Assembly: GCA_002099625.1 (NCBI GenBank)
Contig: GCA_002099625.1_4857.1
Source of the DNA: Escherichia coli
GTDB lineage: Bacteria > Pseudomonadota > Gammaproteobacteria > Enterobacterales > Enterobacteriaceae
Strand: one strand, 5' to 3'
Length of the DNA stretch: 64,000 nt
This document shows, piece by piece, positions 30,000 through 59,341 of this stretch. The notes below the pieces were generated by a model. The model was given only the letters and a program-made list of their open reading frames with translations, had not been told where the DNA came from and made no database searches. A program made the position numbers and the translations under genes. Every line of letters begins with the position of its first letter. Positions within the stretch are counted from its first letter, which is position 1.

Positions 30000-30074
30000 C
30001 GGACTGCCTACGGGCGGGTAGTCCGTAGGTAAACCGCCCTTCCGTTATTGGGAGGGCGGTCTCCGTTTTATTAC
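30000..30074 (+). terminator. tandem hairpins followed by T-run (terminator/attenuator, approx coords)
   Basis: Hairpin 1 CGGACTGCCTACGGGCGGGTAGTCCG; hairpin 2 CCGCCCTTCC-GTTATT-GGGAGGGCGG, then TCTCCGTTTTATTA. Confidence 0.5.
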
Positions 30075-30092
30075 AGATTAGGAGTGTTTGCA

Positions 30093-33000
30093 ATGCCGAG
30101 AGAAGATGCGGCGCAGTTTAACGGTACCCTCAGTACCGCTACTTACCCGAACCGTTATTCGACGGTCATTCCCGTCGAAGCACCGTTCTATCGCATCGGG
30201 TTAACGTTAACCGTTACCGATAAAACAACCGGAACCAAACGCAAGTTAATAGAAGGTCTTGATTATTTCTTAGGACATTACTTCCAGGAATTAGCCGAGG
30301 CTGAGAACGATGCAATATACGGCAGCATAATGCTGCTGAACGCCACAGAGGTAGAATACGAGTTGTTGTCGGTTGGTCGACAGTATCGCATCCCTGCTTC
30401 TGAAATCGGCAAGTATCTGGTTAAGACGGATATGAAAGACCCACGCAACTGCGATTGGTCTGAGCTGATGAAATATCCGCCGATTATCTCGCCAATCGAC
30501 CCGCCAAAAGATCTCGAAGAAGCCATCCTTCGCGATGAGATTGTAAAGGCGCTGGAAGATATCCGACTGGGCATTTTAGAACGTGCCCACGAACTGGATG
30601 AGGCTTTTGCCGAAGTTACCGATTTGATTTATCAGAACGGTAAAAAGGTGTTTGATGACGAAATGTATCAACACCATCTGATTAAAAATGCACATGGTTA
30701 CACCTGTGGCGATATCGGTGCACTCCCTGTGCTCGGTAAGGCCGTGGATGCGACTAAGGCGTTTGGACGTACACTGGCAGAGTTAGTGACGCTAATGTCT
30801 ACCAGCGGTATCCAACAGAAACATGTTGACATGCTTCTGGATAATACCCTGGGTGATTTACTGGGCCGTATGCGTGTTCTGAATAACGACGCGATTACGT
30901 TCCAAACAACGTCTGGCCACGTTATCAGCATGAAGGGTGAGAAGTTCATCATCACCTCGACAAAACCGCTGGTATTAAAAGCTGACCAGGATAACAACGA
31001 ACCGGGTATCGCTACGGAGTTCAGTGCTGGTCTGAACACGCTTTGGGTTCACTCGGGTAAAGCAGGTGACAAGTGGGGCGCTTATGATGCAGGTGTGCTT
31101 GCTCCTGTGTATAACAGCGTCTATCTCGTTACACCGGATATGGTTAAGATGTACTTGACCTCGGTGAAGATACTTCCAGCAAACGCCTACTTCAAGTCCA
31201 GCGACACGTTGAAGATTTACGGCTCTGGTAAAGAAACAAACAAAGTTTACATGAATGCGGAACTGCCTGCAGCAACCACAACTGTGCAGGGCTTGTTTGC
31301 GATTACTAACCTTTCGGCGTCCGCTGCAGCGTCCACAGCGATTTCCCAAAAAGCTGTTACTGACTTGAAGAACAAACTAGACGGATATGTGGACGACACG
31401 TATACGGTCAATGGTAAAGGGTTTGTGTTAGACGAAAACGGTCAAATGCATTTAACATTAACCGCGTCGGATTTCGGTATTGAGAAGATGAACAATACCG
31501 GACCGCTGGAGAAACCGGTTACTAATGCGTTGCGCACCGTGCTATCAGGCAAGGCACTCTCAACACACACCCACACCATTGCTGATCTCGATAACGTGCC
31601 GTACGCATCCACGTCTGTTACAGGTTTGGCTAAACTGTGGGATGCTATTGACACCACAACAGATAAGATGGTTACTGCCCGCCAGGGTTTCTTGCTCGAA
31701 CAGAAAATCGGTACACTGAATGACAAGATTGCTACGTTGTTGCCGGCATGGACCGTTGGCGGATCATCGTACGGCAACAATAACTTCTTGCCTATACCTG
31801 TCCAGGGGAACTACGAAGGGTACACCAAAAACCAAACTTGGCAAAAAGGACTGGCGCGTTACGAGGCTGGTAAGGTTTACTCGTTGCGTAATGGTTCCAA
31901 CGGGAACCCGCCAGGTGACTGGGCTATCTATTACGCCTATGCTGATGTGTCGCCAAGCAATACGCTGGAAAATATGCAGCAGACGTCCGTACGTTATCAC
32001 CCCGCTGGAATGTCGGCGTATCCTGGGGTGAATCTGGTTGCTATTCTGATTACCGGTACAGATGCAATGATCTGCTTAGGCAGTGACTATGCGTATTATC
32101 TGGTCATCTTTGACGGCACCATTGACCATGCAAAACATCATCGCGTTGTTAAAGTTTACTTGGGCGATTACCGAAATGGTAACGCGGCCGGTGTGATTAC
32201 AACCACACCATGGGTTGCCGATCCATCAACAAACGATTTGATCGTTTGCAACGATCGGGTTTATCTACTCCGCACTGTCCTTACCTCCGGTGACTATTTC
32301 GTGAGTATGCGTAGCATCGCACTCAACGAACTTAATCTGGGTGGTAGCAACACGTTTGTGGCGGATGTGTTAACAGGTGGGATGTTAACGTCGGGAGATA
32401 ATATCTACTTGCGTCAGGGTCAGAAACGTTCTGATACAGATGTGTTGGTAGCGCCAGTAACACAAATCTACGCAGATGCATCGGCGAAGTGGAATAGTGC
32501 GCGAAATTTCGTCCATGGTCCGGAATGTAATCACGCGATTGCTGTGGATGGGCTGAACTTTCGTGTTGGTTTAACGCCAACAGTCTGGTTTGCTTCTACT
32601 ACAGGGCAAACTATTAACTTTAAACAATGGGTGTCAAGCTTTGTTGTTGATTGCAGTTCAATGACGGTAACGCTGGAAGGTGCCGATCGATTCCCTATCG
32701 TGGCCGATCTTACCACGGTCCGTTATAACGGCGGGGCTGAGATTGGGATTCCGAGCCGGAAGTGGGGCGAAGGTCAAGCTAATAACCGAACCTTTGCAAC
32801 ATCGCAAGACAAGTATATTGTTTCGCAAGGACATGCAGGCGATCGCGACCTAATGCCTTATGTCACGATTACAACGTTAGATGACGGTGTGAGTTGGTAC
32901 GAGTACCTGTCGTGTGACTACAACTTCACTGCCAGAAGTTTTAGTGCGGTAATGTTAAACCAAGGTCGTGGTTCTATCTACGAGCTGGGTATGGCGTATC

Positions 33001-35276
33001 CGCTGACTCTGGGAGCGAATTCCAGACTTATCTGGTTGTCACAACCGCGTTCCCGTTTGGCAATTGAAGTTGAGTTTGATCCGAACACCACTTACTCAGG
33101 TAAGGCGGGGTATGGCCCAACTAACAATCGTCGTGTAGTAGATTCTATCACGTATGAGAATCTGTCGCAGATGTGCCACATTGTTACACCGGCGTCGCCT
33201 GGTACAGAGTTAAACGGCTGGTATTGCACAGGACCAGAAACATTCCCTTACCACAACGTTTCCGGCACTTTCACGATTCATGCCGATCGATTGACGCTGT
33301 CACAAGCTGAATGGGATAAGATGAAGCAGATGATCATCGACGGAGCACCGGCAGGCGCTGCGAATGGTTATGCTTCGGAATTTATCCTTGCTGCAAATAA
33401 CGCAGGAAAGGCATTGTTTTCCGTTTGGTTCATCGGCATCGGAACGGCCACACCGCTCACATTAGCACAAGTAGCATGTACACGTACTGTGAACAATGTT
33501 AACTTGTTAGATATCTACTACTTTACACTGAAACCAACAATCAGCAACGGGCAGGTAACATTCCCCGCAGCGATATTGGCACTGTTTGACTTCTATAACA
33601 ACCTCGACTATGGCTTGAACTATGCTACGTTGGGAGAGATAACGGGAGGAAAAACACGCCGGCCGGGACAACCTACCATGGTGTCGGTAGATGGTACGCA
33701 GTTCGGGTTGTATCTTCCACACACGTTAACCTTGCGCCAGATTGGCGACTTGGGTGCGCTTAACTACGCTGCTGGTCTTACGCTGTCTAATGGTACCTGG
33801 ACGCGTTCTTCTGCACCACACGGCGTTGGACGTATGGCACCGTCACACACTCCAGTCAGCCCAGCTTATCTGGCTCATCGTGATCAGGTGATGCTACACA
33901 ACTCATCTCTCGACTACGTCTATTGTGGTGGTATCGCAATGTCGTCGAGTGATTTTGTTGCACGTCCGAGTTTCGGTGGGGCGACTGAGACTGTTGTTAT
34001 CGCCGGTGTGGAAACAGCCGAAGGTTGGCTGGTATATGTGACTGAGGAAGTTAACCTGCGTTTCGGCTCGAGCACTTATAAGCTGCCTACGTGGTATATT
34101 GACCTCAGCGCAGCGTTTCCAACAAACCATCAGAACCGGACATTCTACCTGCACGCTAAGGTAGAAAATGGTACACCGAAGTACGTAATGGACGTGGTTC
34201 AACATCCAGACACTGAAACGGAACTCTACATCGGGTATGTTAAAACGGGCTCGTCGCGAGTCGTCGAGACTAACGTCGACCATGCTAAGCGATTGGGGGC
34301 GGTAAAACAGCTGTTGGAACACGCGGCGGTTGAGAATAAGCATGATGTGGAAGTGGGAAGGGATGCAGCAACGGGCAGACTGGCACCATTGCGTAAAGAA
34401 GCGATGGGTCCTTTGTCAGTCGATGCTACGAAAGGCTATCTGGATAGTCAGTTGCTTTATACCGTATCTGACGCACAGCGTCGCGGTAAAGCGATGGTGT
34501 CCAAACGTTTCGAAGGCTTGAAAACTTTGCCGGCGTTTACTCAGGCAAACAAGTCGGGGGCGTTTTGGAAACATCCTACAACAATCGCGACGGTAACGGC
34601 CGACGAGAACAGTGAAGCGACATCGTTGGGTATGGAGTGGGTAGGTATTCCAACGCCCGCTTTCGCTCCGACTTCAACAAACTTGATGGTGGTGGTGCAA
34701 AGTAAATTCGTCGTCCCAGGTACACTGGGAGTAGAAACGACCTTTAATGTCCACGTTGCCCCATGGGAGGCGGTGGATGGCTTTTTCTACAACGTCGAGG
34801 CGGAAGGTACGGATGTTAACATTGACGAAAATCCAGAAGTGTTATTGCCGTCACCACATACCGTGCACCACAAACAGCACTCTCTGCCAGCAGGCGTGCC
34901 GTGCACCTTTACATTTGTCGCGGCGGTAAGTTCTTCAGCGCTCGAAACAGCTAACCAGCATATTTGCTCTTGGCTTTTCACGGACGCTGGGGGTCTACCA
35001 ATCACCACCGATCTTTCGGATAGTAAGATTCAAATCTTACCACAGTCGGGAGAGACCAACGGCACACCAGTTGTTCTGAACAGTCGTAGCTACACGTTTA
35101 CGAATGTGACAGGTGCAATCCCGGTTGTTACCACGGGCGCTCAGGGTTTATTCCCACCACCGATCGTGGCGTGGGATGGCGATGATCTTACGTTAACGAT
35201 TGCGCACGATTGGGTGAACGAGAGAGGACGTCAACAGCCTGATATTATCCAGGTCAATCTTATGTTCCGTACCTAA
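30093..35276 (+). CDS. tail fibre protein 3 (1727 aa from Met16 of track ORF 30048..35276)
   Basis: GGAGTG RBS 6 nt before internal ATG; motifs HTHTIADLDNVPYASTSVTGLAKLW and PAATTTVQGLFAIT. Confidence 0.8.
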   Translation: MPREDAAQFNGTLSTATYPNRYSTVIPVEAPFYRIGLTLTVTDKTTGTKRKLIEGLDYFLGHYFQELAEAENDAIYGSIMLLNATEVEYELLSVGRQYRIPASEIGKYLVKTDMKDPRNCDWSELMKYPPIISPIDPPKDLEEAILRDEIVKALEDIRLGILERAHELDEAFAEVTDLIYQNGKKVFDDEMYQHHLIKNAHGYTCGDIGALPVLGKAVDATKAFGRTLAELVTLMSTSGIQQKHVDMLLDNTLGDLLGRMRVLNNDAITFQTTSGHVISMKGEKFIITSTKPLVLKADQDNNEPGIATEFSAGLNTLWVHSGKAGDKWGAYDAGVLAPVYNSVYLVTPDMVKMYLTSVKILPANAYFKSSDTLKIYGSGKETNKVYMNAELPAATTTVQGLFAITNLSASAAASTAISQKAVTDLKNKLDGYVDDTYTVNGKGFVLDENGQMHLTLTASDFGIEKMNNTGPLEKPVTNALRTVLSGKALSTHTHTIADLDNVPYASTSVTGLAKLWDAIDTTTDKMVTARQGFLLEQKIGTLNDKIATLLPAWTVGGSSYGNNNFLPIPVQGNYEGYTKNQTWQKGLARYEAGKVYSLRNGSNGNPPGDWAIYYAYADVSPSNTLENMQQTSVRYHPAGMSAYPGVNLVAILITGTDAMICLGSDYAYYLVIFDGTIDHAKHHRVVKVYLGDYRNGNAAGVITTTPWVADPSTNDLIVCNDRVYLLRTVLTSGDYFVSMRSIALNELNLGGSNTFVADVLTGGMLTSGDNIYLRQGQKRSDTDVLVAPVTQIYADASAKWNSARNFVHGPECNHAIAVDGLNFRVGLTPTVWFASTTGQTINFKQWVSSFVVDCSSMTVTLEGADRFPIVADLTTVRYNGGAEIGIPSRKWGEGQANNRTFATSQDKYIVSQGHAGDRDLMPYVTITTLDDGVSWYEYLSCDYNFTARSFSAVMLNQGRGSIYELGMAYPLTLGANSRLIWLSQPRSRLAIEVEFDPNTTYSGKAGYGPTNNRRVVDSITYENLSQMCHIVTPASPGTELNGWYCTGPETFPYHNVSGTFTIHADRLTLSQAEWDKMKQMIIDGAPAGAANGYASEFILAANNAGKALFSVWFIGIGTATPLTLAQVACTRTVNNVNLLDIYYFTLKPTISNGQVTFPAAILALFDFYNNLDYGLNYATLGEITGGKTRRPGQPTMVSVDGTQFGLYLPHTLTLRQIGDLGALNYAAGLTLSNGTWTRSSAPHGVGRMAPSHTPVSPAYLAHRDQVMLHNSSLDYVYCGGIAMSSSDFVARPSFGGATETVVIAGVETAEGWLVYVTEEVNLRFGSSTYKLPTWYIDLSAAFPTNHQNRTFYLHAKVENGTPKYVMDVVQHPDTETELYIGYVKTGSSRVVETNVDHAKRLGAVKQLLEHAAVENKHDVEVGRDAATGRLAPLRKEAMGPLSVDATKGYLDSQLLYTVSDAQRRGKAMVSKRFEGLKTLPAFTQANKSGAFWKHPTTIATVTADENSEATSLGMEWVGIPTPAFAPTSTNLMVVVQSKFVVPGTLGVETTFNVHVAPWEAVDGFFYNVEAEGTDVNIDENPEVLLPSPHTVHHKQHSLPAGVPCTFTFVAAVSSSALETANQHICSWLFTDAGGLPITTDLSDSKIQILPQSGETNGTPVVLNSRSYTFTNVTGAIPVVTTGAQGLFPPPIVAWDGDDLTLTIAHDWVNERGRQQPDIIQVNLMFRT

Positions 35277-35323
35277 CAGATAGCGCTATGGGGCAAGGAA
35301 GCCCCAATCAAAGGAGTTTGGCA

Positions 35324-36526
35324 ATGGCCGAAATCATTTATCAGTACCCGCTTGACCTTACCGGGACATTAACGTCGAACGCCGTTACGCGGCGTATTAC
35401 GTTAGGTTCTGGTAAAGTTAACCGGGCTTTTGCATTTCCTGACGGAGCTTTCTACGCGGATACCTTCCGCTTGGCGGCTGCGAATAAACCAGGTGTCTAC
35501 CCGTACAAACGCGGCACAGACTACGAACTGATTTTTGCACATACTGCATATCAGAAAATGACCAAGAACCGCGAAGTGGTCATGGGTGTGGTGGTAACTA
35601 ACTCGGCCATTCCTACTGATATCGAAGTCTCTGCGCAAGTCGTTGGTGGTTTTCAGTCCGCGAACGTCGAAGGTATCCGACAAGCGATTGCGTCGTTGAA
35701 AATTGAAGACCGTGTGGTGGACTTCAAGGATCTTCGAAACGTACCTGATACGTTCCCATCCGCCCCGACGTATAAAGACCTTGGCGATATCTACGGTTTT
35801 GAGTATATCATTACCGTACTCGCTGGGATTAAAGATGCGATTAACTCCGGCTCTGCAGTACAGCTGGAAGAAATCAAAGGTATTCTGGACGGTCTGAAAA
35901 ACGACTTCCTCGATGCCTTAAATGCCCACGTCAACGCCGAAGGTAACGTACACAATCTCGACATTCATCAGGTTAATGGCCTGACGGAGACGGAGATTCG
36001 TGCTCTGATTCAAAGTGTACAGACTGCCATTGACGCCACTATCAAAGATATCGGCGACTTAAGAGCAGCAGACACGGCGTTGGGACAACGCATCGATGCA
36101 GTTGTGGCTTCGTTAGCCGCGTGGAACGACCAGCTTAATGTAGTTGCTCAAAATTACCAGAAAATGTCGTTAGCATTAGCTAACCTTAATTCTCTGGTGT
36201 TGCAATTACAGAAGAAGGTTAACGATCTTCAGTCTGCGCTGAATGAAACAAATCAGCGTGTCACGGATCTTGAGAATCAGGGCAAAGACTTCCAACAGCA
36301 AATTGATAACCTGCAAGGACAAATCAACAGTCTTAAAACTCAGGTTGTAAACAACACCAACGCAATTTCGCAGGCAAACCAGAATCTGGCGAACCATGCG
36401 GCTGCGGATAACCCACACCCGAATTACCTCCATAAACAGTATGGCGGTGTTGTGCAGGCTGCTGTTCACGTCAACAACAACCTCACCTCGCGCGACGATG
36501 TTCAAGCTGAAGCGGGTACTAAGTAA
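35324..36526 (+). CDS. tail-fibre-associated coiled-coil protein (400 aa from Met13)
   Basis: AAGGAG RBS 7 nt before internal ATG; N-terminus resembles those of the three large fibre genes (RGTDYELIF...); long Q/N-rich coiled coil. Confidence 0.7.
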   Translation: MAEIIYQYPLDLTGTLTSNAVTRRITLGSGKVNRAFAFPDGAFYADTFRLAAANKPGVYPYKRGTDYELIFAHTAYQKMTKNREVVMGVVVTNSAIPTDIEVSAQVVGGFQSANVEGIRQAIASLKIEDRVVDFKDLRNVPDTFPSAPTYKDLGDIYGFEYIITVLAGIKDAINSGSAVQLEEIKGILDGLKNDFLDALNAHVNAEGNVHNLDIHQVNGLTETEIRALIQSVQTAIDATIKDIGDLRAADTALGQRIDAVVASLAAWNDQLNVVAQNYQKMSLALANLNSLVLQLQKKVNDLQSALNETNQRVTDLENQGKDFQQQIDNLQGQINSLKTQVVNNTNAISQANQNLANHAAADNPHPNYLHKQYGGVVQAAVHVNNNLTSRDDVQAEAGTK

Positions 36527-36539
36527 CTTGTTTACGAGC

Positions 36540-36580
36540 CGGACTATGTTTATGGACATAGTCCGCTCGTTCTACTTTTT
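36540..36580 (+). terminator. rho-independent terminator/attenuator (approx coords)
   Basis: 9-bp stem CGGACTATG/CATAGTCCG, 8-nt loop, then CTACTTTTTAA; lies between fibre operon and first Cys-rich peptide gene. Confidence 0.5.
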
Positions 36581-36591
36581 AAGGAAGCGTA

Positions 36592-36984
36592 ATGGCGATA
36601 TCTATTAAAGACGTCAGAAACCGCGTCCAGATAGTCGAAGCTAACATGGCGACAGGCCCCCGTATCGACGCGCAAGTGGCCTCTAAAGCCCATAATGCGG
36701 CAGACCGATTTGGGGGTTGGACGAAAGCACAGCTAGATTGCGGCGGGACATGTTCTTGGACGTGCTCTAACGGTTGCTCGCATGGCTGTTCGAGCTGTTC
36801 AGGAAGCTGTTCTGCTTCTTGTATCGGTAGCTGTTCTTCGACGTGTGGCGGTAACTGTTCTGGTTGCTCTGGTTGTTCTGGTGGTTGCAGTAGTAGCTGT
36901 ACCGGTAACTGTTCAGGTGGTTGCGGCGGCTCTTGTTCCGCAAACTGCTCCGGGGCCTGCTCCGGCGGCTGTTCAGGTCGCTAA
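36592..36984 (+). CDS. Cys/Ser/Gly-rich precursor-like peptide P1 (130 aa): ~50-aa leader-like N-terminus plus 21-Cys repeat core
   Basis: AAGGAAG RBS; N-terminus MAISIKDVRNRVQIVEAN...; core DCGGTCSWTCSNGCSHGCSSCSGSC... with Cys every 3-4 residues; ends CSANCSGACSGGCSG. Confidence 0.65.
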   Translation: MAISIKDVRNRVQIVEANMATGPRIDAQVASKAHNAADRFGGWTKAQLDCGGTCSWTCSNGCSHGCSSCSGSCSASCIGSCSSTCGGNCSGCSGCSGGCSSSCTGNCSGGCGGSCSANCSGACSGGCSGR

Positions 36985-36994
36985 GGGGGATTAA

Positions 36995-37399
36995 ATGGCA
37001 ATTGGATTAAAAGAACTGAATAACCGATTAAACACGATCGATGCAAACGCTTTAAAGAACACCACGAATGTGCAAAACTACATTCGCAATAAAGCTACGA
37101 ATAACGCCGACTTGTTCGCAGGTCAAGGCCGTTCGCACTATGACTGTGGCGGCACATGCTCTTTTAGTTGCTCGAGTTGTTCTGGCGGGTGTACTGGGTC
37201 CGCTACGGGTGGTTGTGGGTCGACTTGTTCCGCAAACTGTGTATCGGGCTGTAGCAGCAGCTGTACGGGCTGTAGCTCTTCGTGCTCGGGTGGTTGTAGC
37301 GGCACGTGCACAGGCAGCTGTTCTGGGGGTTGTGGTAAATCCTGCTCCGCAAACTGCTCAGGTGCGTGCTCTGGTGGTTGTTCAGGTCCTAACTCCTAA
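36995..37399 (+). CDS. Cys/Ser/Gly-rich precursor-like peptide P2 (134 aa)
   Basis: RBS AAGGGGG; N-terminus MAIGLKELNNRLNTIDAN... paralogous to P1; core about 21 Cys; same C-terminal CSANCSGACSGGCSG block. Confidence 0.65.
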   Translation: MAIGLKELNNRLNTIDANALKNTTNVQNYIRNKATNNADLFAGQGRSHYDCGGTCSFSCSSCSGGCTGSATGGCGSTCSANCVSGCSSSCTGCSSSCSGGCSGTCTGSCSGGCGKSCSANCSGACSGGCSGPNS

Positions 37400-37414
37400 C
37401 TGACGGAGGCTTAT

Positions 37415-37621
37415 GTGATCAGTCTCAAGGCTATTCGAAACCGTCTCGTTACGGCAGAAGGTTACATTACAACCGCACAGGCAAACAACTATATCGCTAA
37501 CCAGGGCACCGTGTCAACCACGAACAACCTGGCTGGTTTACCGCTTTCCCACTATAACTGTAATGGTGGGTGTAGCTGGTCCTGCAGCGGAAGCTGTAGC
37601 CGTGGAGCGGGGAATCGATAA
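37415..37621 (+). CDS. short precursor-like peptide P3 (68 aa, 4 Cys), probable GTG start
   Basis: RBS ACGGAGG; N-terminus (M)ISLKAIRNRLVTAEG shares leader motif with P1/P2; core NCNGGCSWSCSGSCS. Confidence 0.5.
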   Translation: MISLKAIRNRLVTAEGYITTAQANNYIANQGTVSTTNNLAGLPLSHYNCNGGCSWSCSGSCSRGAGNR

Positions 37622-37643
37622 CAGAAAACGTTCGGAGTATTAA

Positions 37644-38531
37644 ATGAAAAACGATTTGCATCTTGCGTATAAAACCACATTCAACCACCCGCTGCATCTA
37701 TCTTCCCCAGACTCGGTGCGTGCACACCTCGCTGACAAAGTCAGACTGATTGCACAGATTCCTGGTGAGTGGCCAAAGGTTCGTGGTCGCTTCTTGACCG
37801 ACAAGAAGAACTACACCGTAGAAAATACGTTTAAGATCCGTGATATGGTTGCAGAGGCCATCGTTATCTTTAACGGCGATGGTAACTCTCGCGGCGTGTT
37901 AGTCGACGGTAAGTATTTCTTCAGTGAAGGGATTTTGAACAACAGCGTCGATTTAGAACTGATGTTTACACCGTTTGACGAACTTGAAGCAAAACCGATG
38001 GCGCGCCGTTGGTGGAGTCCGGACTATCTGGGCTCGTTCCCTTACTACTTTGTACTGGTACCTGCCGATACGGAAACGTATTTCGACACCGAACCATACA
38101 TCGATATCGAGGGGTATAAAGAACTCGGCATCACCCGTTTAGCGGACATGATGGCGTATAGCTATAAGTTCGTGTGGGATAAAAAGCGTTCTGTCTGGTA
38201 TGCGCTGACTGACGATTTTGAAATCACCAAGCGTATTCGTAAGCCGTGGATGCAACACCTGGTTCAAACTCGATATGGGGATTACCCGGCGACAGAAGCG
38301 GATTTGAGTAAGCTGGTAAGTTTCCTCTTAACGAAGGTGGATTTAACGAAAGAAGAAGCAGAAGCTGTTTCTGAGATTCGTGGTCGTTCGGTAACGTTGG
38401 CCGATTTGAAACGTCTGAACGAAAGACACGCCGACCTGAACAAAATTTTAGCTGCCTATCACGACCCGATGTTACTGGTGCCTGGCGCTAACGTAGACGA
38501 AGATCCTTTATTCGCCATTGATTATATTTAA
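37644..38531 (+). CDS. hypothetical protein (295 aa) in peptide/rSAM operon
   Basis: ORF with RBS, between peptide genes and rSAM genes; no motif recognised. Confidence 0.65.
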   Translation: MKNDLHLAYKTTFNHPLHLSSPDSVRAHLADKVRLIAQIPGEWPKVRGRFLTDKKNYTVENTFKIRDMVAEAIVIFNGDGNSRGVLVDGKYFFSEGILNNSVDLELMFTPFDELEAKPMARRWWSPDYLGSFPYYFVLVPADTETYFDTEPYIDIEGYKELGITRLADMMAYSYKFVWDKKRSVWYALTDDFEITKRIRKPWMQHLVQTRYGDYPATEADLSKLVSFLLTKVDLTKEEAEAVSEIRGRSVTLADLKRLNERHADLNKILAAYHDPMLLVPGANVDEDPLFAIDYI

Positions 38532-38553
38532 AAATATACTGGAGCAACCTGCA

Positions 38554-39468
38554 ATGACAGATCAAGTAGAATCCAGGATCTCGTCTGAACTGTACGACAA
38601 ACCGTCAATTCTGTCGGTTGTCGCAACTTCTAAGTGTAACTTAGACTGTAGCTTCTGTGGAGGGGCTTATTACATGGATAGAGAAGATACTTCTCGTGAG
38701 TTTCAACGTGAAGAGATTCTCTCGATTTTAGAGAAGAATCCGGATATCGGTGAGATTCATTGGACGGGCGGTGAGCCGCTGTTAGCGCAGCGTAAGATTG
38801 AAGACTTCGTGAACGAGTTGAAGGAGTCTCATCCGAACCTCCGTCATCACATGTACACCAACGGTTTAAAGATGCGTAAATCACATCTGCCGTTGCTGAA
38901 ACAGTTCGACCTTATCTTTGTGTCCATTGACGGCTACAAGAAGTCGGAACGTCCGTTTATGAACTTTGTAAACGGTGGTAATCACGAAGCGCTGGAAGTG
39001 CTGTACGAGCTGGACAATTATTACACCTGGGGTGTGATGACGCGTGACCAGTTAGGCGATAAACGCTGGTACGAAGATTTCATCGAGCTGCACCGAGCAA
39101 TCTATCATTACCGTCCAGGTGGTGTGTCGTTGTTGTTTGATGCGATGATGCCGAAACCGTTATCGCCAGACCACGTCATGAACTTCATGTACGGGTATTG
39201 GAAAATACTCGACAATATCGAACGCCTTAACATGCAGAACGACTCTGAATGTGGGCTTGCGATCAGTAAAATGTTCGATACCGAGTGCAACACGTGCAGT
39301 GAAGTGCTGTGGCTTAACGCCGACGGTACGCAGGAGCAAATTCAGAACGCCCCAGAGATATTGGAAGTCGGCTGTAATCGCCTGGCGCGTTCTATCGGCG
39401 TTGATGCGTATAACTACATCAACCGTGTAATTTCTGCTAAGCGTAAACGGGCGGCGAACAATGAGTAA
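38554..39468 (+). CDS. radical SAM enzyme 1 (304 aa from Met13)
   Basis: CNLDCSFCGG (C-x3-C-x2-C) near N-terminus; WTGGEPLL glycine-rich SAM motif; additional C-terminal Cys (C-x12-C-x2-C...C) suggesting an auxiliary cluster. Confidence 0.75.
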   Translation: MTDQVESRISSELYDKPSILSVVATSKCNLDCSFCGGAYYMDREDTSREFQREEILSILEKNPDIGEIHWTGGEPLLAQRKIEDFVNELKESHPNLRHHMYTNGLKMRKSHLPLLKQFDLIFVSIDGYKKSERPFMNFVNGGNHEALEVLYELDNYYTWGVMTRDQLGDKRWYEDFIELHRAIYHYRPGGVSLLFDAMMPKPLSPDHVMNFMYGYWKILDNIERLNMQNDSECGLAISKMFDTECNTCSEVLWLNADGTQEQIQNAPEILEVGCNRLARSIGVDAYNYINRVISAKRKRAANNE

Positions 39469-40789
39469 TAGCGAACAGCAAATCCAGTACACACCACGCA
39501 CGTATCAGGTTGTGACTAACCTGTCATGTAACCTGGACTGCGAATACTGCTACGAGCGTAAATATCCGCGTAACAACAAAGTAGCAGACGTGATTGATTT
39601 TATCCACGCTTGTTTCGAGCGTGATAAAGATATCCCGAACGTTGAAGTCATCATCGATATCATCGGTGGTGAGCCGTTCATGCAGCCTAAACTTCTTTTG
39701 GCGGCCTTTGAAACCGCAGAGAAGTTATGCGCAGAACACAATCGCCCGTATATGTTCAGTATCTCCACGAACGGTACGCTTCTGGACCGTCCGCTGAACA
39801 AAGAAATTATCGAGCGCTGGAAAGACAAACTGTCTATTGGGGTCTCCATCGATGGTTTACCTGAAGTCCATGACAAATATCGTATCTTTACCACGACGCG
39901 TGAAGGGTCGTACGAAGCTGCGGTACGCGGTTACAATTATCTGAAGAGTGTTGGCATCGCTGAACTGGGCGTAAAAGCGACGTTTACGATCGATACATTG
40001 CCGCACTATGCCGCCAGCATGAAATCGTTAATTGACATGTCCGGCGGTGGTACCATTTCTGGTAATGTAACGTACGAAGATATCCTGCCGCGCCATATGG
40101 CGTTGGATATCGCGAACCAGATGATGGACGTGATGGACTACTGGATTGAGAAGGGTCTGCACACCAACCCGCGTAACACGATTACACACATCATCCCGGA
40201 TGGCCTGAACTTTATGGCAACTTGGGACCCGGATTGGCGTGACAAACTCTTGCACGACGACTCTGTTCGTCTCGACCCAGAACGCCTGAAACCGTACTGC
40301 GGTACGTTGACGCACATGACCTGTCTCGGCTTTGATCGCAAGATTTACGGTTGTAACCGTTTCATGTCCACGGTAACTTCCCGCTCTGCTGTAGCGGAAC
40401 TGGTCGGTCGTGAGTTTGTGAGTCTGGACGGTGGTAAGCTGTTAGAAGAGATTCAAACGCAGTACACCAACTACCCAGAAACCTGTTTAGGGTGTCCGAT
40501 GAAGCACAGCTGCGGTAGCTGCGCAGCAGCATCGTACGAAAACGGTGAAGGTACACTGGAAGACCGTAAAGCGTATCACGCCGAGCGTCGTCAGTGTGGT
40601 TGGACTACTGCGAAGCTGATGGCGGCGGAATATTGGTATCAAAAAACTGGTACGACTCGCGCATCAGATTTGCACGATAAATCCATGTGCTATTGTTCAC
40701 GTTGTGTACGCCAACGTGCCGAAGCAGAAAAATTACAAAACGGAGCCCAGAATGAAGTCAATACTGATTCACAATTTTACGAAGCGTAA
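39461..40789 (+). CDS. radical SAM enzyme 2 with SPASM-like C-terminal domain (442 aa)
   Basis: CNLDCEYC (C-x3-C-x2-C); IIGGEPF; C-terminal Cys cluster CGTLTHMTC...C...CLGCPMKHSCGSC typical of SPASM/twitch; start overlaps rSAM1 stop by 8 nt. Confidence 0.8.
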   Translation: MSNSEQQIQYTPRTYQVVTNLSCNLDCEYCYERKYPRNNKVADVIDFIHACFERDKDIPNVEVIIDIIGGEPFMQPKLLLAAFETAEKLCAEHNRPYMFSISTNGTLLDRPLNKEIIERWKDKLSIGVSIDGLPEVHDKYRIFTTTREGSYEAAVRGYNYLKSVGIAELGVKATFTIDTLPHYAASMKSLIDMSGGGTISGNVTYEDILPRHMALDIANQMMDVMDYWIEKGLHTNPRNTITHIIPDGLNFMATWDPDWRDKLLHDDSVRLDPERLKPYCGTLTHMTCLGFDRKIYGCNRFMSTVTSRSAVAELVGREFVSLDGGKLLEEIQTQYTNYPETCLGCPMKHSCGSCAAASYENGEGTLEDRKAYHAERRQCGWTTAKLMAAEYWYQKTGTTRASDLHDKSMCYCSRCVRQRAEAEKLQNGAQNEVNTDSQFYEA

Positions 40790-41318
40790 ACTGCACTTGG
40801 TCGATCGCTTCCTGCGCAAAAGCAAGCTGTACAATGTGCACGCAATTGTGGCAGGGGAAGACTTCACTGATGAAATCCAAAGCCTGTTGATTAAATACGG
40901 GCTGAATGTGATGATCCCGGTCTACTGCGTTGAGAAAGGACACGAGTCTGTCGCGGAAATCGAAAAGCGCAACCCTGGCTTTGAGAAGCGACTGCTTGCA
41001 TACCCACGCCACAAAATCGAACTGCTACGTCACTCTATTGATGAAGCCAGTCCTGAAAGTTTAGTGGCATTGGGCTTGTCATTCCCGCGGATGCGTATTC
41101 GTAACTTACGCTCCAATAACCCGGTTGACGCTTATTACACAGAACGTCAAATCTTCGAAGAACACCTGCTCCCGCAGTTGGAAGAAGAAGAGCAACACAA
41201 CATTTCTCTGTTGTGGGCCGGTAACCTCGATCAGGACTTCCAGATGCTGGACTTCGGTTTGTTGTTAGAACTTGGCCTGATTGAGGAGGACGAATGTCTG
41301 TTACTGACAAAAGCTTAA
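40752..41318 (+). CDS. hypothetical protein (188 aa from Met17)
   Basis: ACGGAG RBS before internal ATG; overlaps rSAM2 3' end. Confidence 0.55.
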   Translation: MKSILIHNFTKRKLHLVDRFLRKSKLYNVHAIVAGEDFTDEIQSLLIKYGLNVMIPVYCVEKGHESVAEIEKRNPGFEKRLLAYPRHKIELLRHSIDEASPESLVALGLSFPRMRIRNLRSNNPVDAYYTERQIFEEHLLPQLEEEEQHNISLLWAGNLDQDFQMLDFGLLLELGLIEEDECLLLTKA

Positions 41319-41965
41319 CGAACGAAGAGATCCGCGCCCGTTATTTCCAGCGCGATTTGCCGATTGATCGTCACGGTAATTTCATGGAACGAATCGGTGC
41401 GCAGGATCAGGGTCGTACTGGATTTTGTGCATTACTCCATTACCATCTCATCGAAGGGATGTCTGATAAAGAAGCCCTGGCACGCATGAAGCTGTATGAG
41501 ATGTCGGAGATTGAAGCTAACTTCACATTGAAACGCACGAAAGAGTTTATTGCTAATGTGCTGGAGATTGACCTCGACGAAATTCGCGGGAATCTGAAAT
41601 CTACCGCACGTTACATTTACGAAGACGTGCAGAAGATGCTGTTGGAACTTGACCATCGCTACGAAGATGAGCGCCATGGTTATATCGAGTTTGAAGGTAG
41701 CCACTTTCAAGCCGATGAATCGTCGCGTACCATCCTCGGTCAATATATTCAGGCGGATACCGCACCAGAATACTGGCTCGATACGCTGAATACTAAGCAC
41801 AGTCCGTTTACAGTAGACCAATGTAAAGCGTTGTTGGCCGCTATTGTTGCACGTGACCAAGTGTTGCACTCAGCAATGGCAGATAACAAACGCCAAATCC
41901 GTGAGTTGGCTGAAAAGCGCGATTACACTGGATTAAAAACATTGTCCGAATCTCTCGGCATGTAA
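41294..41965 (+). CDS. hypothetical protein (223 aa), last gene of operon
   Basis: GAGGAGGA RBS; followed by strong terminator. Confidence 0.6.
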   Translation: MSVTDKSLTNEEIRARYFQRDLPIDRHGNFMERIGAQDQGRTGFCALLHYHLIEGMSDKEALARMKLYEMSEIEANFTLKRTKEFIANVLEIDLDEIRGNLKSTARYIYEDVQKMLLELDHRYEDERHGYIEFEGSHFQADESSRTILGQYIQADTAPEYWLDTLNTKHSPFTVDQCKALLAAIVARDQVLHSAMADNKRQIRELAEKRDYTGLKTLSESLGM

Positions 41966-41967: not shown

Positions 41968-42024
41968 AAAGAAAATAAAGGCCCTACCTCCCCGAAGGGA
42001 GGTAGGTACCTTTTATTTATTTCT
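41968..42024. terminator. bidirectional rho-independent terminator (approx coords)
   Basis: 10-bp stem CCTACCTCCC/GGGAGGTAGG, GAA loop, A-run before and TTTTATTTATTT after. Confidence 0.7.
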
Positions 42025-49155: not shown

Positions 49156-50058
49156 TTAGCTAAGAACCAGTTCGATAACGTGGACTACCGACGCGCTATT
49201 GGTCGAAGAGGTGTACGATGGTAAGTCTGGTGAGCCGCTGCGATAATACCACGGGCTGGCGTTGTCATAACCGTTGGCAAACAATGTTGCGGTTGACTCG
49301 GTTGGACTACTGCCGGAGCGCGTCGGTAAGTCGCCAAAACGTCTTACGATGCCCGCGTACCGGAACAAGCTTGCGAACGTGTTGTGCCACTCGCCGTCTT
49401 GAAAATAACCACCGCTGCTTAGGTAGGTGCTGTGCCCATAACTGTAGTCTCCGAGTCGAGGCAAACGTACCACATACTCGTAACCGTCTTTATTAAATGT
49501 CCGACGCTGGTTAGTGGTAGTGACGCTCCGCGGCGGGAAACCGTAGTCATCTGTTCCCCAGGCCAGACCTTGCTGGTATTGTTCGTTCCACGTCGTCCCT
49601 AAACGGGTCACCGTGTCAGGAATGAACAGAATGCGTCCTTTGAAAACGAATTTATGGAACAATGTTGGAGCTTGGTTCCAGGCATTAAAGCCAATTAAAC
49701 CATTCAGCTCGGCATGGTTAAGAATAAATTCTTCGTTTGTCAGTGTGCCAAAGTAGCCACGATGCCAGTCGCCACGAATAAGTTCCTGTGGGCCGGGTCC
49801 TGTCATTGGAAAGTCGCCCTGTACAATCGGCAGCCCCATAACCTTTTCAGTGCCCTTTACCGCCACGATGCGATATTGATACGTTTTATACGCTTCGGTG
49901 GTCTTGTCCTCGTACGTCGTTGTGTTACCTGGTAGTGTTACAATAGGTTCCCCCGGTGCTACTGGGTTAACATTTTGTCTGGGGTTGTCGTAACGATAGA
50001 TTTCAATGGAATCCAAAGTCTGACCTGGCTGTTGTTTCCAGTTTAAGATAATCGACAT
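49156..50058 (-). CDS. module gene A1: fibre-like protein with FN3-like N-terminus (300 aa)
   Basis: GGAG RBS; motif FPMTGPGPQELIRGDWHRGYFGT shared with A2/A3 and the C genes. Confidence 0.75.
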   Translation of the reverse strand: MSIILNWKQQPGQTLDSIEIYRYDNPRQNVNPVAPGEPIVTLPGNTTTYEDKTTEAYKTYQYRIVAVKGTEKVMGLPIVQGDFPMTGPGPQELIRGDWHRGYFGTLTNEEFILNHAELNGLIGFNAWNQAPTLFHKFVFKGRILFIPDTVTRLGTTWNEQYQQGLAWGTDDYGFPPRSVTTTNQRRTFNKDGYEYVVRLPRLGDYSYGHSTYLSSGGYFQDGEWHNTFASLFRYAGIVRRFGDLPTRSGSSPTESTATLFANGYDNASPWYYRSGSPDLPSYTSSTNSASVVHVIELVLS

Positions 50059-50061
50059 GTT

Positions 50062-51060
50062 TTACTCCACTAACTCGATAACGAATGCGTACAAACCGAC
50101 CTTCTCAGCACTGTCAATTAACGTAACTTGGGAGAGGTTACGTTTCGACGTATTGGTTATACTTGAATCGATAGGCGCAGACCCACGAACCAGAACTAAT
50201 CCCGATTCAGGATCACGTTCCTGGCACAAGAAACCTTTGCCTTGGTAAGCGCCACCGCTCCCATAAATGGACGCTGGACTAATATTAGTCCAGTTAGGGA
50301 GCATTTGTTTGTTAGGGATGCAATCAGCGAACGGATAAACAAAGTCGTTATATTCGCAGCGACCATATTCCAAGTCATCATGGTCTGCGTTTCGTAACGA
50401 TTCATCCAACGTCATTACTGTCGGTTCGTCCCCGTCGGTTAAACCGCGCAGCAATCGCATCCGATAGGTGTCGCCTTGCCATTCAAACAACCCACTCTGG
50501 TCAACACCTGCCAGATCCCCACGTCCGTTATCAGGACCAAATCCGTCTACGCCGTATACAAGACCCGCGTTATAAATGTCATTCCACGAGTAAAGTGTAG
50601 AGTTAAATCGTCCGCCGTTGTACATCATGTAGTAAACTTTACCATGACGATAAAACTTGTTCATGATTAGCGTGCCCGTGCCCGATATCCCTGTTAATGC
50701 ACGAAAGCCTGCAGGCAACGCGTCATAGGTCATCTGTTCTTCGAACGGCAACTGCCCCAGAAACGCCAAGTCGTCAGTATCGGAATAGTTAATCTGGTCG
50801 ACGCCACCCACACCACGACGGTTTTTAATGACAATGGATTTTTGTGGACTACCTACGGTACGACCGTTAACAGTTACTGTTAAAAGATACCAGTAACGGG
50901 TGTTAAGAATAACGGTTTCGTCCGTCCATTCCGTTTCGCCATTACTTAAAGTTGCAATAGGGGCTGGTAATGCGGCTGTATTTATTTTAGCCGTGCCCCG
51001 ATAAATGTTAACAATTGAACCTGCCGGATTTTCATTTTTCCAGCGTAGTGTGAAAGCCAT
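50062..51060 (-). CDS. module gene B1: fibre-like protein (332 aa)
   Basis: AAGGAG RBS; N-terminus MAFTLRWKNENPAGSIVNIYRGT paralogous to B2/B3. Confidence 0.75.
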   Translation of the reverse strand: MAFTLRWKNENPAGSIVNIYRGTAKINTAALPAPIATLSNGETEWTDETVILNTRYWYLLTVTVNGRTVGSPQKSIVIKNRRGVGGVDQINYSDTDDLAFLGQLPFEEQMTYDALPAGFRALTGISGTGTLIMNKFYRHGKVYYMMYNGGRFNSTLYSWNDIYNAGLVYGVDGFGPDNGRGDLAGVDQSGLFEWQGDTYRMRLLRGLTDGDEPTVMTLDESLRNADHDDLEYGRCEYNDFVYPFADCIPNKQMLPNWTNISPASIYGSGGAYQGKGFLCQERDPESGLVLVRGSAPIDSSITNTSKRNLSQVTLIDSAEKVGLYAFVIELVE

Positions 51061-51070
51061 CTGTTACTCC

Positions 51071-52513
51071 TTAGAAGCCGTTCAACTCACCGTTCGCGGT
51101 TGCTAAATCTGTTTTAAGTGGAGGTTTTGCCTGAGTAGGCGGTAGTGGACGCGGTGCGTCGACGTGTGGTTCAAGTACAACCATCGGCCTAACTGTACCT
51201 ACGCTGTTCGACACTGTCGATAACGGCAGCGCAGTATCGACGTTTGGTTCACCCACCACAATCGGGCTGATAGGTTCTTCCACCTGTTCCGCAGTTGTTG
51301 CTAGAGGTCTCGGCGCATCTGTTGTCGCAACCACGACTGCAAGAGGGCGAATGCTATCAGGTTGTGGTGATGGTACATTAGGAATAACCCTAACGCGCCA
51401 CACAACATCCCCTTCCACATCAGCTAAAGGTAAGACGATGTCGTCCTTATTGATTTCCTCTAAAACAGGCCACCAGTAAGTGGTATCTGTAAGGGTTACC
51501 CATTCAACTGAGCCACCGCGCATATTGCAACGTTGTACTTTAACAGGGTTACCCCCGGTTAACAGTTGTTGCGTGAAGAAGACGGTGGTTCTGGTTAACG
51601 TGGTGTCATTTGCCCAGTCGCCGCCCGTAGAACCGTCACCGAGTTGTGAAATAAGCCACAACGGTGTGGCCTTTGATAAATCAGGGCTAACCGGAACGGA
51701 GACGCGGTAATAATGCGTCTTGTTATTCTCAGTTTTCGTGACAATCAAAGCCTGGTCAACAGGTTCGATACCGTCTGGATACGGACCAGCGTCACCTGTA
51801 CCGAAAATGGCACCCGCTTGATAAAGGGCCGTCCAGGTTGCTGTTAACGTTCCGGTAGTCGGTAGATAAACAATCTTACCATCCTTGAAAAATTTCAACC
51901 ATTCGAAAGTCATTTTCGTTGGGGCAACATCAGGACGAATTAGGTTGTTTAGTTCAGCAAAGGTAAATAACTCTTGCTGAGAAACGTGGCCGAAGTATCC
52001 GTTTGTGCTGTCCCCTGCCAACAAATATTTATTGCCTGGCCCAGAATCTGGATAGTAGCCCACGGCTTCATTCAAATAATCGACCGGGATATAGCCGCGA
52101 TAGCATACGCTATTATACACGGTTAAATTAATACGTGTTGGCGTTGCCAGCGATTTGATAGGCGCGTCTACCGACTGTACACTGCTATCAGATAACCAAA
52201 CACCGTATAAATCGCGTAGAGCTGGGAGAAGATCCCGCACGGTCTTGGCCGTTTGTGGTACGTAGATGCGCGGAGCTATTTTAAATAGATCTGATAATGT
52301 TAAACGGTCGTAATAAACCGTGCACTCCCCAGAGAAACCTTTACCGGGTTTTCCTACCAACGTAATTACCGTGTTACGACCATTCTTAGTGGTCTCGGCA
52401 GGAATACCCCTCACCCCAATCGAATCAGCGCTGATTCTTCCTGCGAGTTCAGGGTTATCCCTTACGACTTGCTGGCAGAGTAATTCCAGTTCGGGTGCGC
52501 TATACAATCCCAT
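51071..52513 (-). CDS. module gene C1: fibre-like family protein with C-terminal NGELNGF (480 aa)
   Basis: AGGAGA RBS; N-terminus MGLYSAPELELLCQQVVRDNPELAG...YYDRLTLSDLF; PRPL repeats near C-terminus. Confidence 0.75.
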   Translation of the reverse strand: MGLYSAPELELLCQQVVRDNPELAGRISADSIGVRGIPAETTKNGRNTVITLVGKPGKGFSGECTVYYDRLTLSDLFKIAPRIYVPQTAKTVRDLLPALRDLYGVWLSDSSVQSVDAPIKSLATPTRINLTVYNSVCYRGYIPVDYLNEAVGYYPDSGPGNKYLLAGDSTNGYFGHVSQQELFTFAELNNLIRPDVAPTKMTFEWLKFFKDGKIVYLPTTGTLTATWTALYQAGAIFGTGDAGPYPDGIEPVDQALIVTKTENNKTHYYRVSVPVSPDLSKATPLWLISQLGDGSTGGDWANDTTLTRTTVFFTQQLLTGGNPVKVQRCNMRGGSVEWVTLTDTTYWWPVLEEINKDDIVLPLADVEGDVVWRVRVIPNVPSPQPDSIRPLAVVVATTDAPRPLATTAEQVEEPISPIVVGEPNVDTALPLSTVSNSVGTVRPMVVLEPHVDAPRPLPPTQAKPPLKTDLATANGELNGF

Positions 52514-52524
52514 GAAGTCTCCTG

Positions 52525-53424
52525 TTAAGGCAGAACGAGTTCAAGTACCGCAATGGAGCGTATTGTAGTGGTACCGTAGTTACTCCACGACGGCGACTCA
52601 GGGTAAGGTGGACGGTTGTACCACTGACTGGACGTGTTATTCATAGCCGCAAAGAATGCAGATTGTTGGGCAGTAACCGAATCGATTGGACCGACCGGAA
52701 GGTCGTCAAAGCGCGGAAACTGCCCACTGTAGTTGTACAGGCGCGCGAAGGTGTTAAACCACTCACCGTCGAGATACAACTCAGTGTTACCGCTTCCAAC
52801 GTAAGACGTCCAGTATTTGTAGTCGAACAAATACGGCAAGCGCACCACGTATTCGTAACCGTTCTTCGCCACCGTGCGGCGTTGGTTACGTGCAGTAGCC
52901 CAGCCCGGTACATATCCATTGCCATCCTGGCCGTACATCATCCCCTGGTTATAAATGAACTGCGGGCTAGCGTTTATTATCGAGTTATCGGACATAAACA
53001 GAATACGGTTTTTGTAAATGAATTTATGCCAGGCACCAACGGCGGAACTGAACATATTCACCACGAGGCCGTTCAGTTCCGTGTTAGTGAATAACTCTGC
53101 CGGCGTTACTGTTCCAAAGTATCCAGCGTGCCAGTCGCCGTATAACAGCTTCTGGGGGCCAGGCCCGGTGTCTAAAAAGAACCCTTGGGCGGTAGGGGTG
53201 TTGAAGACACGCTCACCGTCTTTAACCGCAGCTATCCAATAACGGTAAGTGGTGTTGTTTTCCACAGCGTTGTCTTCGTACGATGTAGCGTCACCCGGAA
53301 GGGTTGCCAGAGGCGTTCCCGGTGCATTAACATCAATGGTGGCGTTGCCAGGCGTCTTGCGATAGATTTCGATGTTATCGAGCGCCTGTGGCTTCCGTTG
53401 TGCAAAGTTTAATGTAATAGGCAT
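52525..53424 (-). CDS. module gene A2 (299 aa from Met13 of track ORF)
   Basis: GAGGA RBS before internal ATG; LDTGPGPQKLLYGDWHAGYFGT. Confidence 0.75.
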   Translation of the reverse strand: MPITLNFAQRKPQALDNIEIYRKTPGNATIDVNAPGTPLATLPGDATSYEDNAVENNTTYRYWIAAVKDGERVFNTPTAQGFFLDTGPGPQKLLYGDWHAGYFGTVTPAELFTNTELNGLVVNMFSSAVGAWHKFIYKNRILFMSDNSIINASPQFIYNQGMMYGQDGNGYVPGWATARNQRRTVAKNGYEYVVRLPYLFDYKYWTSYVGSGNTELYLDGEWFNTFARLYNYSGQFPRFDDLPVGPIDSVTAQQSAFFAAMNNTSSQWYNRPPYPESPSWSNYGTTTIRSIAVLELVLP

Positions 53425-53426
53425 GA

Positions 53427-54416
53427 TTAATCCTCGATAAGCTCGATTACTGGAATCCAAATACCGCCCACGGTCGCACCAGGGACATGTTGTATACGCT
53501 GGAGGTTATCCACGGTATCAGTGGAATCCGCCGCCGCCCATCCGCGCGTCAGCCCCAACTTACTGTCTGGGTCAAACTCCTGACAATGCGCCCCACGGCC
53601 TGCCACCAGCGATCCGTTTCCGAATATGCTGGAGTTCGACCACTTTATCAGGGACATCACTTTTTTCTTTTCTGGGAACCAGCTACTTATCCCATAGATG
53701 AGTCGGTTGTATTCGCTATCGGCAGTATACGGTGACGCGTCATGGAGTTTACCGTTCCACTGTGCGTCGAGTGTCATGACCGGGCTTTCACTGTCGAGCG
53801 TTAACCCGCGCAGCAGGCGCATCCGATAGCGGTCACCCAACCACGTAAACTCCCCAGCCTGGTCAACGTCAGGTAAATCACCATGACCGCCTTCCGGACC
53901 AGGTCCCGCCACACCGTACAGCAAACCCGCGTTATAAATCGCATCACGGCTATACAGCGTGTTGCCGTTCACACGAAGACCACTAAACAGATACAGAATT
54001 TTACCGTCTAGCTGGAACTTCATCAAGCCCGGCTTAACAGTTGGGTCGTATCCAGAAAGGGCCACAAACCCTGGCGGATAATCACCCGCGCTAGGTAATT
54101 CACCGTACGCCACGTACCCGTAATACGCAAAGCGGTCATCACCGTACAGTGGAGCCACGATGCCGATACCGCGACGGTTCTGAATCAGAATTGATTTCTG
54201 CGGACTGAACAGTGTCCGACTTCCCACTGTCACGGTGGTCATGTAGTAATACGTTGTCCCCAGTATCGCTGTTCGGTCAGTATACTCAGTTTCCCCGTTA
54301 GTGAACGTTGCCAGGGGTTCAGGTAATGCCGTACGCACCAGAGGTTTGGTGTCGCGGTACAGCTTCACGGTCGAAGCCCCAGGGTTATTGTTCGTCCAAC
54401 GAATTGTAAAAGCCAT
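53427..54416 (-). CDS. module gene B2 (329 aa)
   Basis: Paralog of B1/B3 (MAFTIRWTNNNPGASTVKLYRDT). Confidence 0.75.
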   Translation of the reverse strand: MAFTIRWTNNNPGASTVKLYRDTKPLVRTALPEPLATFTNGETEYTDRTAILGTTYYYMTTVTVGSRTLFSPQKSILIQNRRGIGIVAPLYGDDRFAYYGYVAYGELPSAGDYPPGFVALSGYDPTVKPGLMKFQLDGKILYLFSGLRVNGNTLYSRDAIYNAGLLYGVAGPGPEGGHGDLPDVDQAGEFTWLGDRYRMRLLRGLTLDSESPVMTLDAQWNGKLHDASPYTADSEYNRLIYGISSWFPEKKKVMSLIKWSNSSIFGNGSLVAGRGAHCQEFDPDSKLGLTRGWAAADSTDTVDNLQRIQHVPGATVGGIWIPVIELIED

Positions 54417-54428
54417 TGTCGTTACCTC

Positions 54429-59340: not shown

Positions 59341-59341
59341 C

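Follow-up and report, generated by a model that had tools for sequence, protein, structure and literature searches.

Several radical S-adenosylmethionine (SAM) enzymes that act on peptides, among them CteB, PapB, QhpD and the small-ring makers NxxcB and streptosactin GggB, form thioethers: PapB is the ranthipeptide maturase of freyrasin, and PapB, the SCIFF maturase and QhpD all make these links on cysteine. NCBIfam records a further pairing, between proteins with a C-x-x-x (CXXX) repeat (TIGR04114) and radical SAM maturases (TIGR04115), as a family pair, and we found no paper in the literature that gives it a biological role. Here we describe a related locus in a 64,000-nucleotide stretch of DNA (the window; Escherichia coli assembly GCA_002099625.1, contig GCA_002099625.1_4857.1), in which two radical SAM enzymes, rSAM1 and rSAM2, follow three small proteins, P1–P3, and a gp165-like protein among phage tail-fibre genes. 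We hold, with modest confidence, that rSAM1 and rSAM2 form the catalytic part of a tail-fibre maturation module with P1–P3 as its substrates; most likely, the pair hardens a part of the virion chemically rather than making an antibiotic peptide.

Both rSAM1 (38554–39468, + strand, 304 amino acids) and rSAM2 (39461–40789, + strand, 442 amino acids) belong to the radical SAM superfamily, scoring 58.8 and 55.6 bits against PF04055 (cut-off 29.5). The initial annotation, made from the window alone, saw in them two different and tightly coupled enzymes, each with CX3CX2C and GGEP motifs, and these features are all present: the motifs occupy residues 28–35 (C28/C32/C35, nucleotides 38635–38658) and 72–75 in rSAM1, and residues 23–30 (C23/C27/C30, nucleotides 39527–39550) and 69–72 in rSAM2. 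Identity between the two is only 26% and limited to the N-terminal 144 residues, which argues for distinct enzymes rather than recent duplicates. The genes overlap by eight nucleotides (39461–39468, + strand), exactly ATGAGTAA, with the rSAM2 start codon lying within the end of rSAM1; as rSAM2 also lacks a good Shine-Dalgarno sequence (AACGGGCGGCGAACAATG), whereas adjoining genes carry GGAG-type sites, the coupled translation that had been proposed fits well.

The SPASM-like tail ascribed to rSAM2 is borne out by eight cysteines (C280, C288, C298, C342, C345, C351, C354 and C379; nucleotides 40298–40597), seven of them invariant and C288 nearly so in 28 homologues (31–91% identity), which provide the 7–8 cysteines for two auxiliary clusters in a C-terminal SPASM fold. 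The shorter pattern ascribed to rSAM1 is present as well, with its first spacing off by one: cysteines 233, 245, 248 and 274 read C-x11-C-x2-C-x25-C rather than beginning with x12. Conservation of the auxiliary cysteines, the check proposed at the time, holds for rSAM2 and is partial for rSAM1, in which C245, C248 and C274 (nucleotides 39286–39375) are invariant in 20 homologues (40–89% identity) and C233 is variable. With only these three conserved, rSAM1 does not qualify as a full SPASM enzyme with seven cysteines and two auxiliary clusters; its model predicts a radical SAM core followed by a shortened, twitch-like SPASM remnant with at most one auxiliary cluster. AlphaFold models of both enzymes are confident (predicted local distance difference test scores of 87 and 88), and a fold search of BFVD returned many other phage radical SAM enzymes and nothing more. 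Beyond the SPASM region, rSAM2 carries an extra C-terminal C-x-C-x2-C (C410/C412/C415, nucleotides 40688–40705) that is conserved in the jumbo-phage clade only.

Profile scores place rSAM2 as a sister of its two best NCBIfam matches, below both cut-offs: 125.6 bits against TIGR04115, the CXXX-repeat-target maturases (cut-off 350), and 113.6 against PapB (NF047865, cut-off 340). By score it is not a member of TIGR04115, against which viral relatives of the class B described below reach 400–497 bits; the adjacent CXXX target of that family is nevertheless there, with P1–P3 1–2 kb upstream and a cysteine spacing of 4 in 84% of intervals. P1 and P2 themselves score 18.4 and 17.1 bits against TIGR04114, just under its cut-off of 20. 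For rSAM1 the NCBIfam matches are radical SAM cores only, such as HxsC at 45 bits. Both enzymes were assigned to phrog_1802 and P1–P3 to phrog_6085.

P1 (36592–36984, + strand, 130 amino acids, 21 cysteines; phrog_6085, E = 5e-40) has a CXXX repeat domain preceded by a short N-terminal segment. Its paralogue P2 (36995–37399, + strand, 134 amino acids, 20 cysteines) was recognised by phrog_6085 (E = 3e-41) and by alignment, and P3 (37415–37621, + strand, 68 amino acids, GTG start; phrog_6085, E = 3e-24) is a short paralogue with four cysteines only. Orthologues of P3 are 58–68 amino acids long in L007–L015 of the numbered loci, so that the short form is kept across the clade and a truncated pseudogene is ruled out; longer "members" of the P3 cluster proved to be unrelated proteins. 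In the protein collection searched, the exact P1 and P2 sequences were not found, and entries for P3, gp165 and rSAM1 are all named "hypothetical" or "radical SAM". The repeats are composed of cysteine and small residues, with cysteine as the sole invariant residue, a spacing of 4 in 228 intervals and of 3 in 43, and Ser or Thr directly after the cysteine (position +1) in 69%; aromatic residues are absent except for one Trp or Phe at the start. A scan of P1–P3 for the acceptor motifs of anSME (C/S-x-P/A-x-R) and PapB (C-x3-D/E) found neither.

The picture of leader-guided peptide maturation suggested by the initial annotation finds no support in these proteins. Neither enzyme has an N-terminal recognition domain, the CX3CX2C motif beginning already at residue 23 or 28, and the N-terminal parts of P1–P3 match the stretch ahead of the C-terminal CXXX domain in true tail-fibre proteins elsewhere. 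The junction ahead of the repeat is conserved, reading NAADRFGGWTKAQLDCGGTCSWTC in P1, NADQLGGQAGSYYRCSDCSWTC in L002 and AETLNGQAPDYYRCANGCSWTC in L023.

The arrangement recurs elsewhere. A scan of IMG/VR yielded at least 481 related stretches, from which 80 viral loci with an rSAM2 relative were fetched; 79 of these 80 have a CXXX open reading frame (ORF) on the strand of the rSAM2 relative, usually no more than ~2.5 kb away, and distant rSAM2 homologues (32–39% identity) are found in phage tail modules alongside a second radical SAM enzyme. Hidden Markov models (HMMs) built in this analysis split the loci into two classes. Class A, comprising the window and ~11 independent phage or prophage lineages, combines a CXXX-ending protein, a gp165-like gene and a SPASM radical SAM enzyme that reaches 380 bits or more with the rSAM2 profile (L167, unscored, was placed by gene context only). 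A small rSAM1-like enzyme is present in 9 of 11 class A lineages, and the CX3CX2C and GGEP motifs are kept in all ten small enzymes aligned across lineages; the genes do not always stand in the same order, and most of them adjoin closely, overlapping by 1–8 nucleotides. Class B loci have a single radical SAM enzyme, a true TIGR04115 member, and neither a gp165-like gene nor a small radical SAM enzyme. The gp165 HMM matches all class A loci except the divergent L003 and L004, and no class B locus; on profile matches, the gp165-like gene is a marker of the two-enzyme class.

Among the best 80 loci from species-representative bacterial genomes, no class A locus with two radical SAM enzymes and a gp165-type gene was found, only TIGR04115-like ones, and nearly all cultured phages that have an rSAM2 relative belong to the jumbo clade of SPN3US, Erwinia and Cronobacter. 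The module is present in 34 records of phages of Erwinia amylovora, which leaves without support the earlier proposal that an anaerobic or microaerobic host cytoplasm, as in an enteric host, is required; many radical SAM enzymes are active in aerobically grown E. coli. The pair also occurs with only one CXXX protein (L002, L004, L005, L017/L166, L018 and L023). The suggestion that the two enzymes specialise among P1–P3 is therefore unlikely, and two roles on one substrate are favoured.

In class A, the CXXX domain lies at the extreme C-terminus of proteins of 250–570 amino acids, most of them recognisably tail fibres. Fibre domains stand on the CXXX-bearing polypeptide itself in L017/L166 (PF12571, 138.8 bits; phrog_327, E = 1e-55), L005 (PF12571), L016 (a long-tail-fibre distal-subunit family), L022 (phrog_2631, E = 1e-31) and L023 (collagen-like repeats), and phrog_6085, the family of P1–P3, is matched by the C-termini of six of nine carriers. 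A P2-like prophage of Campylobacter pinnipediorum has the order gpW, gpJ, gpI, fibre with a CXXX tip, gp165-like gene, SPASM radical SAM enzyme, small radical SAM enzyme, DUF1353 protein, sheath and tube, the module occupying the position taken in P2 by the fibre-assembly chaperone gene G. True TIGR04115 members likewise adjoin CXXX proteins in viral contigs, and one such class B locus lies downstream of Dit and minor-tail genes. CXXX proteins and their radical SAM enzymes are, in this way, tied to the host-recognition end of tails in jumbo phages, P2-like prophages and siphovirus-type tail tips.

Some loci depart from the common pattern. At L022 (6137–8194, on a 284-kb viral contig), the small and the SPASM enzyme form one continuous ORF of 686 amino acids, whose small part lacks the C-terminal cysteine motif. 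At L167 (6732–9794, a Pyramidobacter prophage), a collagen-like fibre ending only in ...GCSCDEA stands before a gp165-like gene and a radical SAM enzyme reduced to 328 amino acids, the small enzyme being absent; the system may be present here in minimal form. Class B targets can be very large, one having 480 amino acids and 92 cysteines (L028, 4756–6198), and those in Margulisiibacteriota/Termititenax genomes ~670 amino acids and 112–122 cysteines (L086–L088, about 3868–6647). At L076 (12315–14741) a second radical SAM enzyme adjoins a protein of 369 amino acids and 81 cysteines with Asp-rich repeats of C-x-C-D type, a different cysteine-repeat target in the same viral contig.

We suggest that P1–P3 are stand-alone fibre-tip modules and not classical leader-core precursors, because most CXXX carriers elsewhere are recognisably tail fibres and, in the P2-like prophage, the module sits in the slot of a fibre chaperone. 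They would be free-standing versions of the CXXX domains that elsewhere form the distal, C-terminal end of tail fibres. The gene anatomy, the conserved motifs, the folds and the repeated association with fibre genes are observed; the modification, if it occurs at all, would proceed as follows. The module would be made together with the late fibre genes and act in the host cytoplasm without being packaged. rSAM2, with its SAM cluster and two fully cysteine-ligated auxiliary clusters, would install many covalent links on the repeat; by analogy with the thioether-forming maturases, these are most likely repeated thioethers from cysteine to nearby Ser, Thr or Gly, which would give a ladder of small rings. 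rSAM1, with its SAM cluster and at most one three-cysteine cluster, may act on that substrate as well, in another and different step: its intact SAM motifs in most lineages argue for catalysis, whereas the loss of the gene in two lineages and the variation of its C-terminal cysteine motif argue for an accessory step. gp165 might substitute for the absent recognition domain or serve as a fibre chaperone. Disulfides cannot form in a reducing cytoplasm, and redox-independent cross-links made there could yield a rigid, protease-resistant fibre tip. A bolder version, which we put forward only tentatively, is that fibre tips are built from a ribosomally made domain as a cysteine ladder stapled by radical SAM chemistry, with each of two different enzymes making its own kind of link, possibly from one to another of the three chains in a fibre.

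Several observations weigh against the proposal that P1–P3 are fibre tips matured by the enzyme pair. P1–P3 carry the pre-repeat junction motif and no recognisable fibre domain: neither a shaft nor an attachment domain was found on these polypeptides. The repeats lack the Asp/Glu acceptors that PapB-type enzymes use, rSAM2 falls under the cut-offs of every named family and is not detected by the Pfam SPASM profile PF13186, and the structural neighbours of the two enzymes cover five chemistries. No P1–P3 peptides are known from virions, although these proteins lay outside the mass-spectrometry database that was searched. The small enzyme is absent from L016 and L167 and its C-terminal cysteine motif is lost in L022 and altered in L023, from which it follows that the rSAM1 step is dispensable or variable. 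The last point would also be expected if rSAM1 were a redundant paralogue or one without catalytic activity, serving as scaffold or partner to an rSAM2 that modifies the substrate alone, and rSAM1 does evolve faster than rSAM2 (41–69% versus 65–83% identity). Nevertheless, we consider this the least probable of the explanations weighed here, as the CX3CX2C and GGEP motifs are invariant in 20 of 20 rSAM1 homologues and equally kept in the small enzymes of other lineages, and the gene is retained in most lineages despite shuffling of the genes around it.

P1–P3 could also be the leader-core precursors of a classical ribosomally synthesised and post-translationally modified peptide (RiPP), whose radical SAM-modified product, a bacteriocin, metallophore or signal with no link to the virion, would be freed when the cell lyses. 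Their short length, the conserved N-terminal 50 residues, the cysteine-rich C-terminus, the proximity of rSAM2 to RiPP maturase families and the missing virion peptides would all suit such a role, and gp165 could be an unrecognised adaptor in a leader-dependent system. However, profile searches found no protease, transporter or recognition domain in the operon, nor any PqqD-type Pfam match, a homologous domain is fused to true fibre proteins of 250–570 amino acids elsewhere, and in each lineage inspected the module lies within a block of fibre or baseplate genes, all of which makes this improbable. A target in the virion may, alternatively, be subject to another chemistry, with one or both enzymes carrying out epimerisation, oxidation of Cys or Ser to formylglycine, or formation of C-C links. 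rSAM2 has all eight SPASM cysteines, as does anSME, while CteB has an open iron site, and the presence of two enzymes suggests two chemistries. Against this, the anSME substrate motif is absent from P1–P3, the near-absence of aromatics from the repeats disfavours cyclophane formation, cysteine is the only invariant repeat residue, and the nearest families, TIGR04115 and PapB, are named peptide maturases by NCBIfam. We regard a different chemistry as unlikely, though less so than a released peptide.

The gp165-like protein (37644–38531, + strand, 295 amino acids; phrog_8030), a candidate adaptor or chaperone, belongs to a family that has no sequence relatives in Pfam or PDB and that a search at E ≤ 0.001 found in just 23 of 1.84 billion cluster representatives. 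Virion proteomics of phage SPN3US detected gp167–170 and none of gp161–166, with gp167 present in virions and not assigned to the head (PMC5694885). P1–P3 could not be detected in that experiment because they are unannotated and hence were outside the mass-spectrometry database.

In the SPN3US reference record (JN641803, L001), P1–P3 (window 36592–37621) are unannotated, gp166 is annotated in a different frame across P2 (window 37068–37403), and gp164 is annotated from Met41, which cuts off window 38554–38673 and with it the CX3CX2C motif of rSAM1. These two annotation errors, the omission of P1–P3 and the shortening of gp164, conceal the system in the reference genome. Positions 36500–41400 of the window are 98–99% identical to Salmonella phages 1252 and SPN3US, and by this identity the window is assigned to an SPN3US-like jumbo phage of Enterobacterales. 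Within it, rSAM1 and rSAM2 belong to a late fibre operon running from gp168 through gp161 to a terminator. The first + strand gene of the fibre unit in the stretch examined encodes the gp168 homologue (30048–35276), a giant baseplate/tail-fibre protein recognised by its ORF and the SPN3US annotation; gp168 of SPN3US is a tail protein missing from tailless mutants (PMC5105663; PMC5694885). A homologue of gp167 follows (35288–36526, + strand), a coiled-coil virion structural protein (phrog_2163, E = 5e-108). Downstream of rSAM2 and overlapping it by 38 nucleotides lies the gp162 homologue of unknown function (40752–41318, + strand; phrog_7988), and the final gene is the gp161 homologue (41294–41965, + strand), a DUF4376 protein (PF14301, 38.1 bits, cut-off 25; phrog_8169). 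The unit is closed by a strong, bidirectional terminator-like hairpin (41983–42006), whose 10-bp stem has seven GC pairs and which is accompanied by T runs on both strands. Related jumbo phages of Erwinia and Cronobacter type keep the nine genes from gp167 to gp161 in synteny, even where rSAM2 identity has fallen to 65%; a scan for sigma-70 promoters was uninformative, with 5 sites observed versus 8.4 expected.

The identical rSAM2 protein is found on 598 contigs, many of them ~240 kb and within assemblies of Salmonella enterica and E. coli isolates; from this record, the jumbo phage often accompanies surveillance isolates, either in a carrier state or as a contaminant. Among the SPFM phage records, several match in 40 short pieces only, giving frameshifted protein fragments, which suggests error-rich assemblies rather than biology. 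On the minus strand of the window, about a dozen consecutive ORFs of 276–498 amino acids (49156–63758) are probably the head paralogue family B described in SPN3US (PMC5694885).

If stapling of fibre tips by radical SAM enzymes were true, it would amount to a novel type of virion maturation and would give the whole CXXX-repeat/radical SAM family a biological role. Should the modification be confirmed, it would be, to our knowledge, the first case of a virion structural protein modified post-translationally by a radical SAM enzyme, and would reveal a route to cross-links in the reducing cytoplasm. The question is directly testable, as SPN3US, which grows on Salmonella, serves as a genetic model for which amber mutants exist.

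Searches of the literature on SPN3US, on CXXX-repeat/TIGR04115 and on SPASM with tail fibre, in which subscription journals are thinly covered, returned no description of such a system. The initial annotation also entertained an anSME-type reaction, a reading that falls with the absence of C/S-x-P/A-x-R from P1–P3, and identity with anSME (TIGR03942; PDB 4k36) was rejected at 57.3 bits against a cut-off of 349. PapB was likewise set aside, in identity and in substrate logic, given the score reported above and the lack of C-x3-D/E in P1–P3. CteB, the SCIFF maturase (PDB 5wgg), differs in score (53.9 of 425 bits for rSAM2) and in having a domain, its recognition domain, ahead of the SAM-cluster motif where rSAM2 has none. 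HxsB/HxsC resemble the present pair in combining a large SPASM and a small radical SAM enzyme on a short-period repeat target, and HxsC is the best NCBIfam match of the small enzymes of L002 and L005 and among the top ones for rSAM1, as HxsB is for rSAM2. Identity was rejected here too (HxsB 75.1 of 370 bits, HxsC 45–53 of 268; no HXS repeats in the target), and the present context differs in consisting of phage fibre genes. The TIGR04115/TIGR04114 pair shares a SPASM radical SAM enzyme adjoining a C-x-x-x repeat protein, whereas its true loci have one such enzyme, no gp165-like gene and larger targets (20–92 cysteines in viral loci). Finally, the fibre-assembly chaperones P2 gpG and Tfa are similar in position, being encoded immediately behind the fibre gene of a P2-like tail block, and in that they, like the module proteins, are not found in the virion; unlike these chaperones, to which it has no sequence relationship, the module fills that slot with two radical enzymes and an orphan protein.

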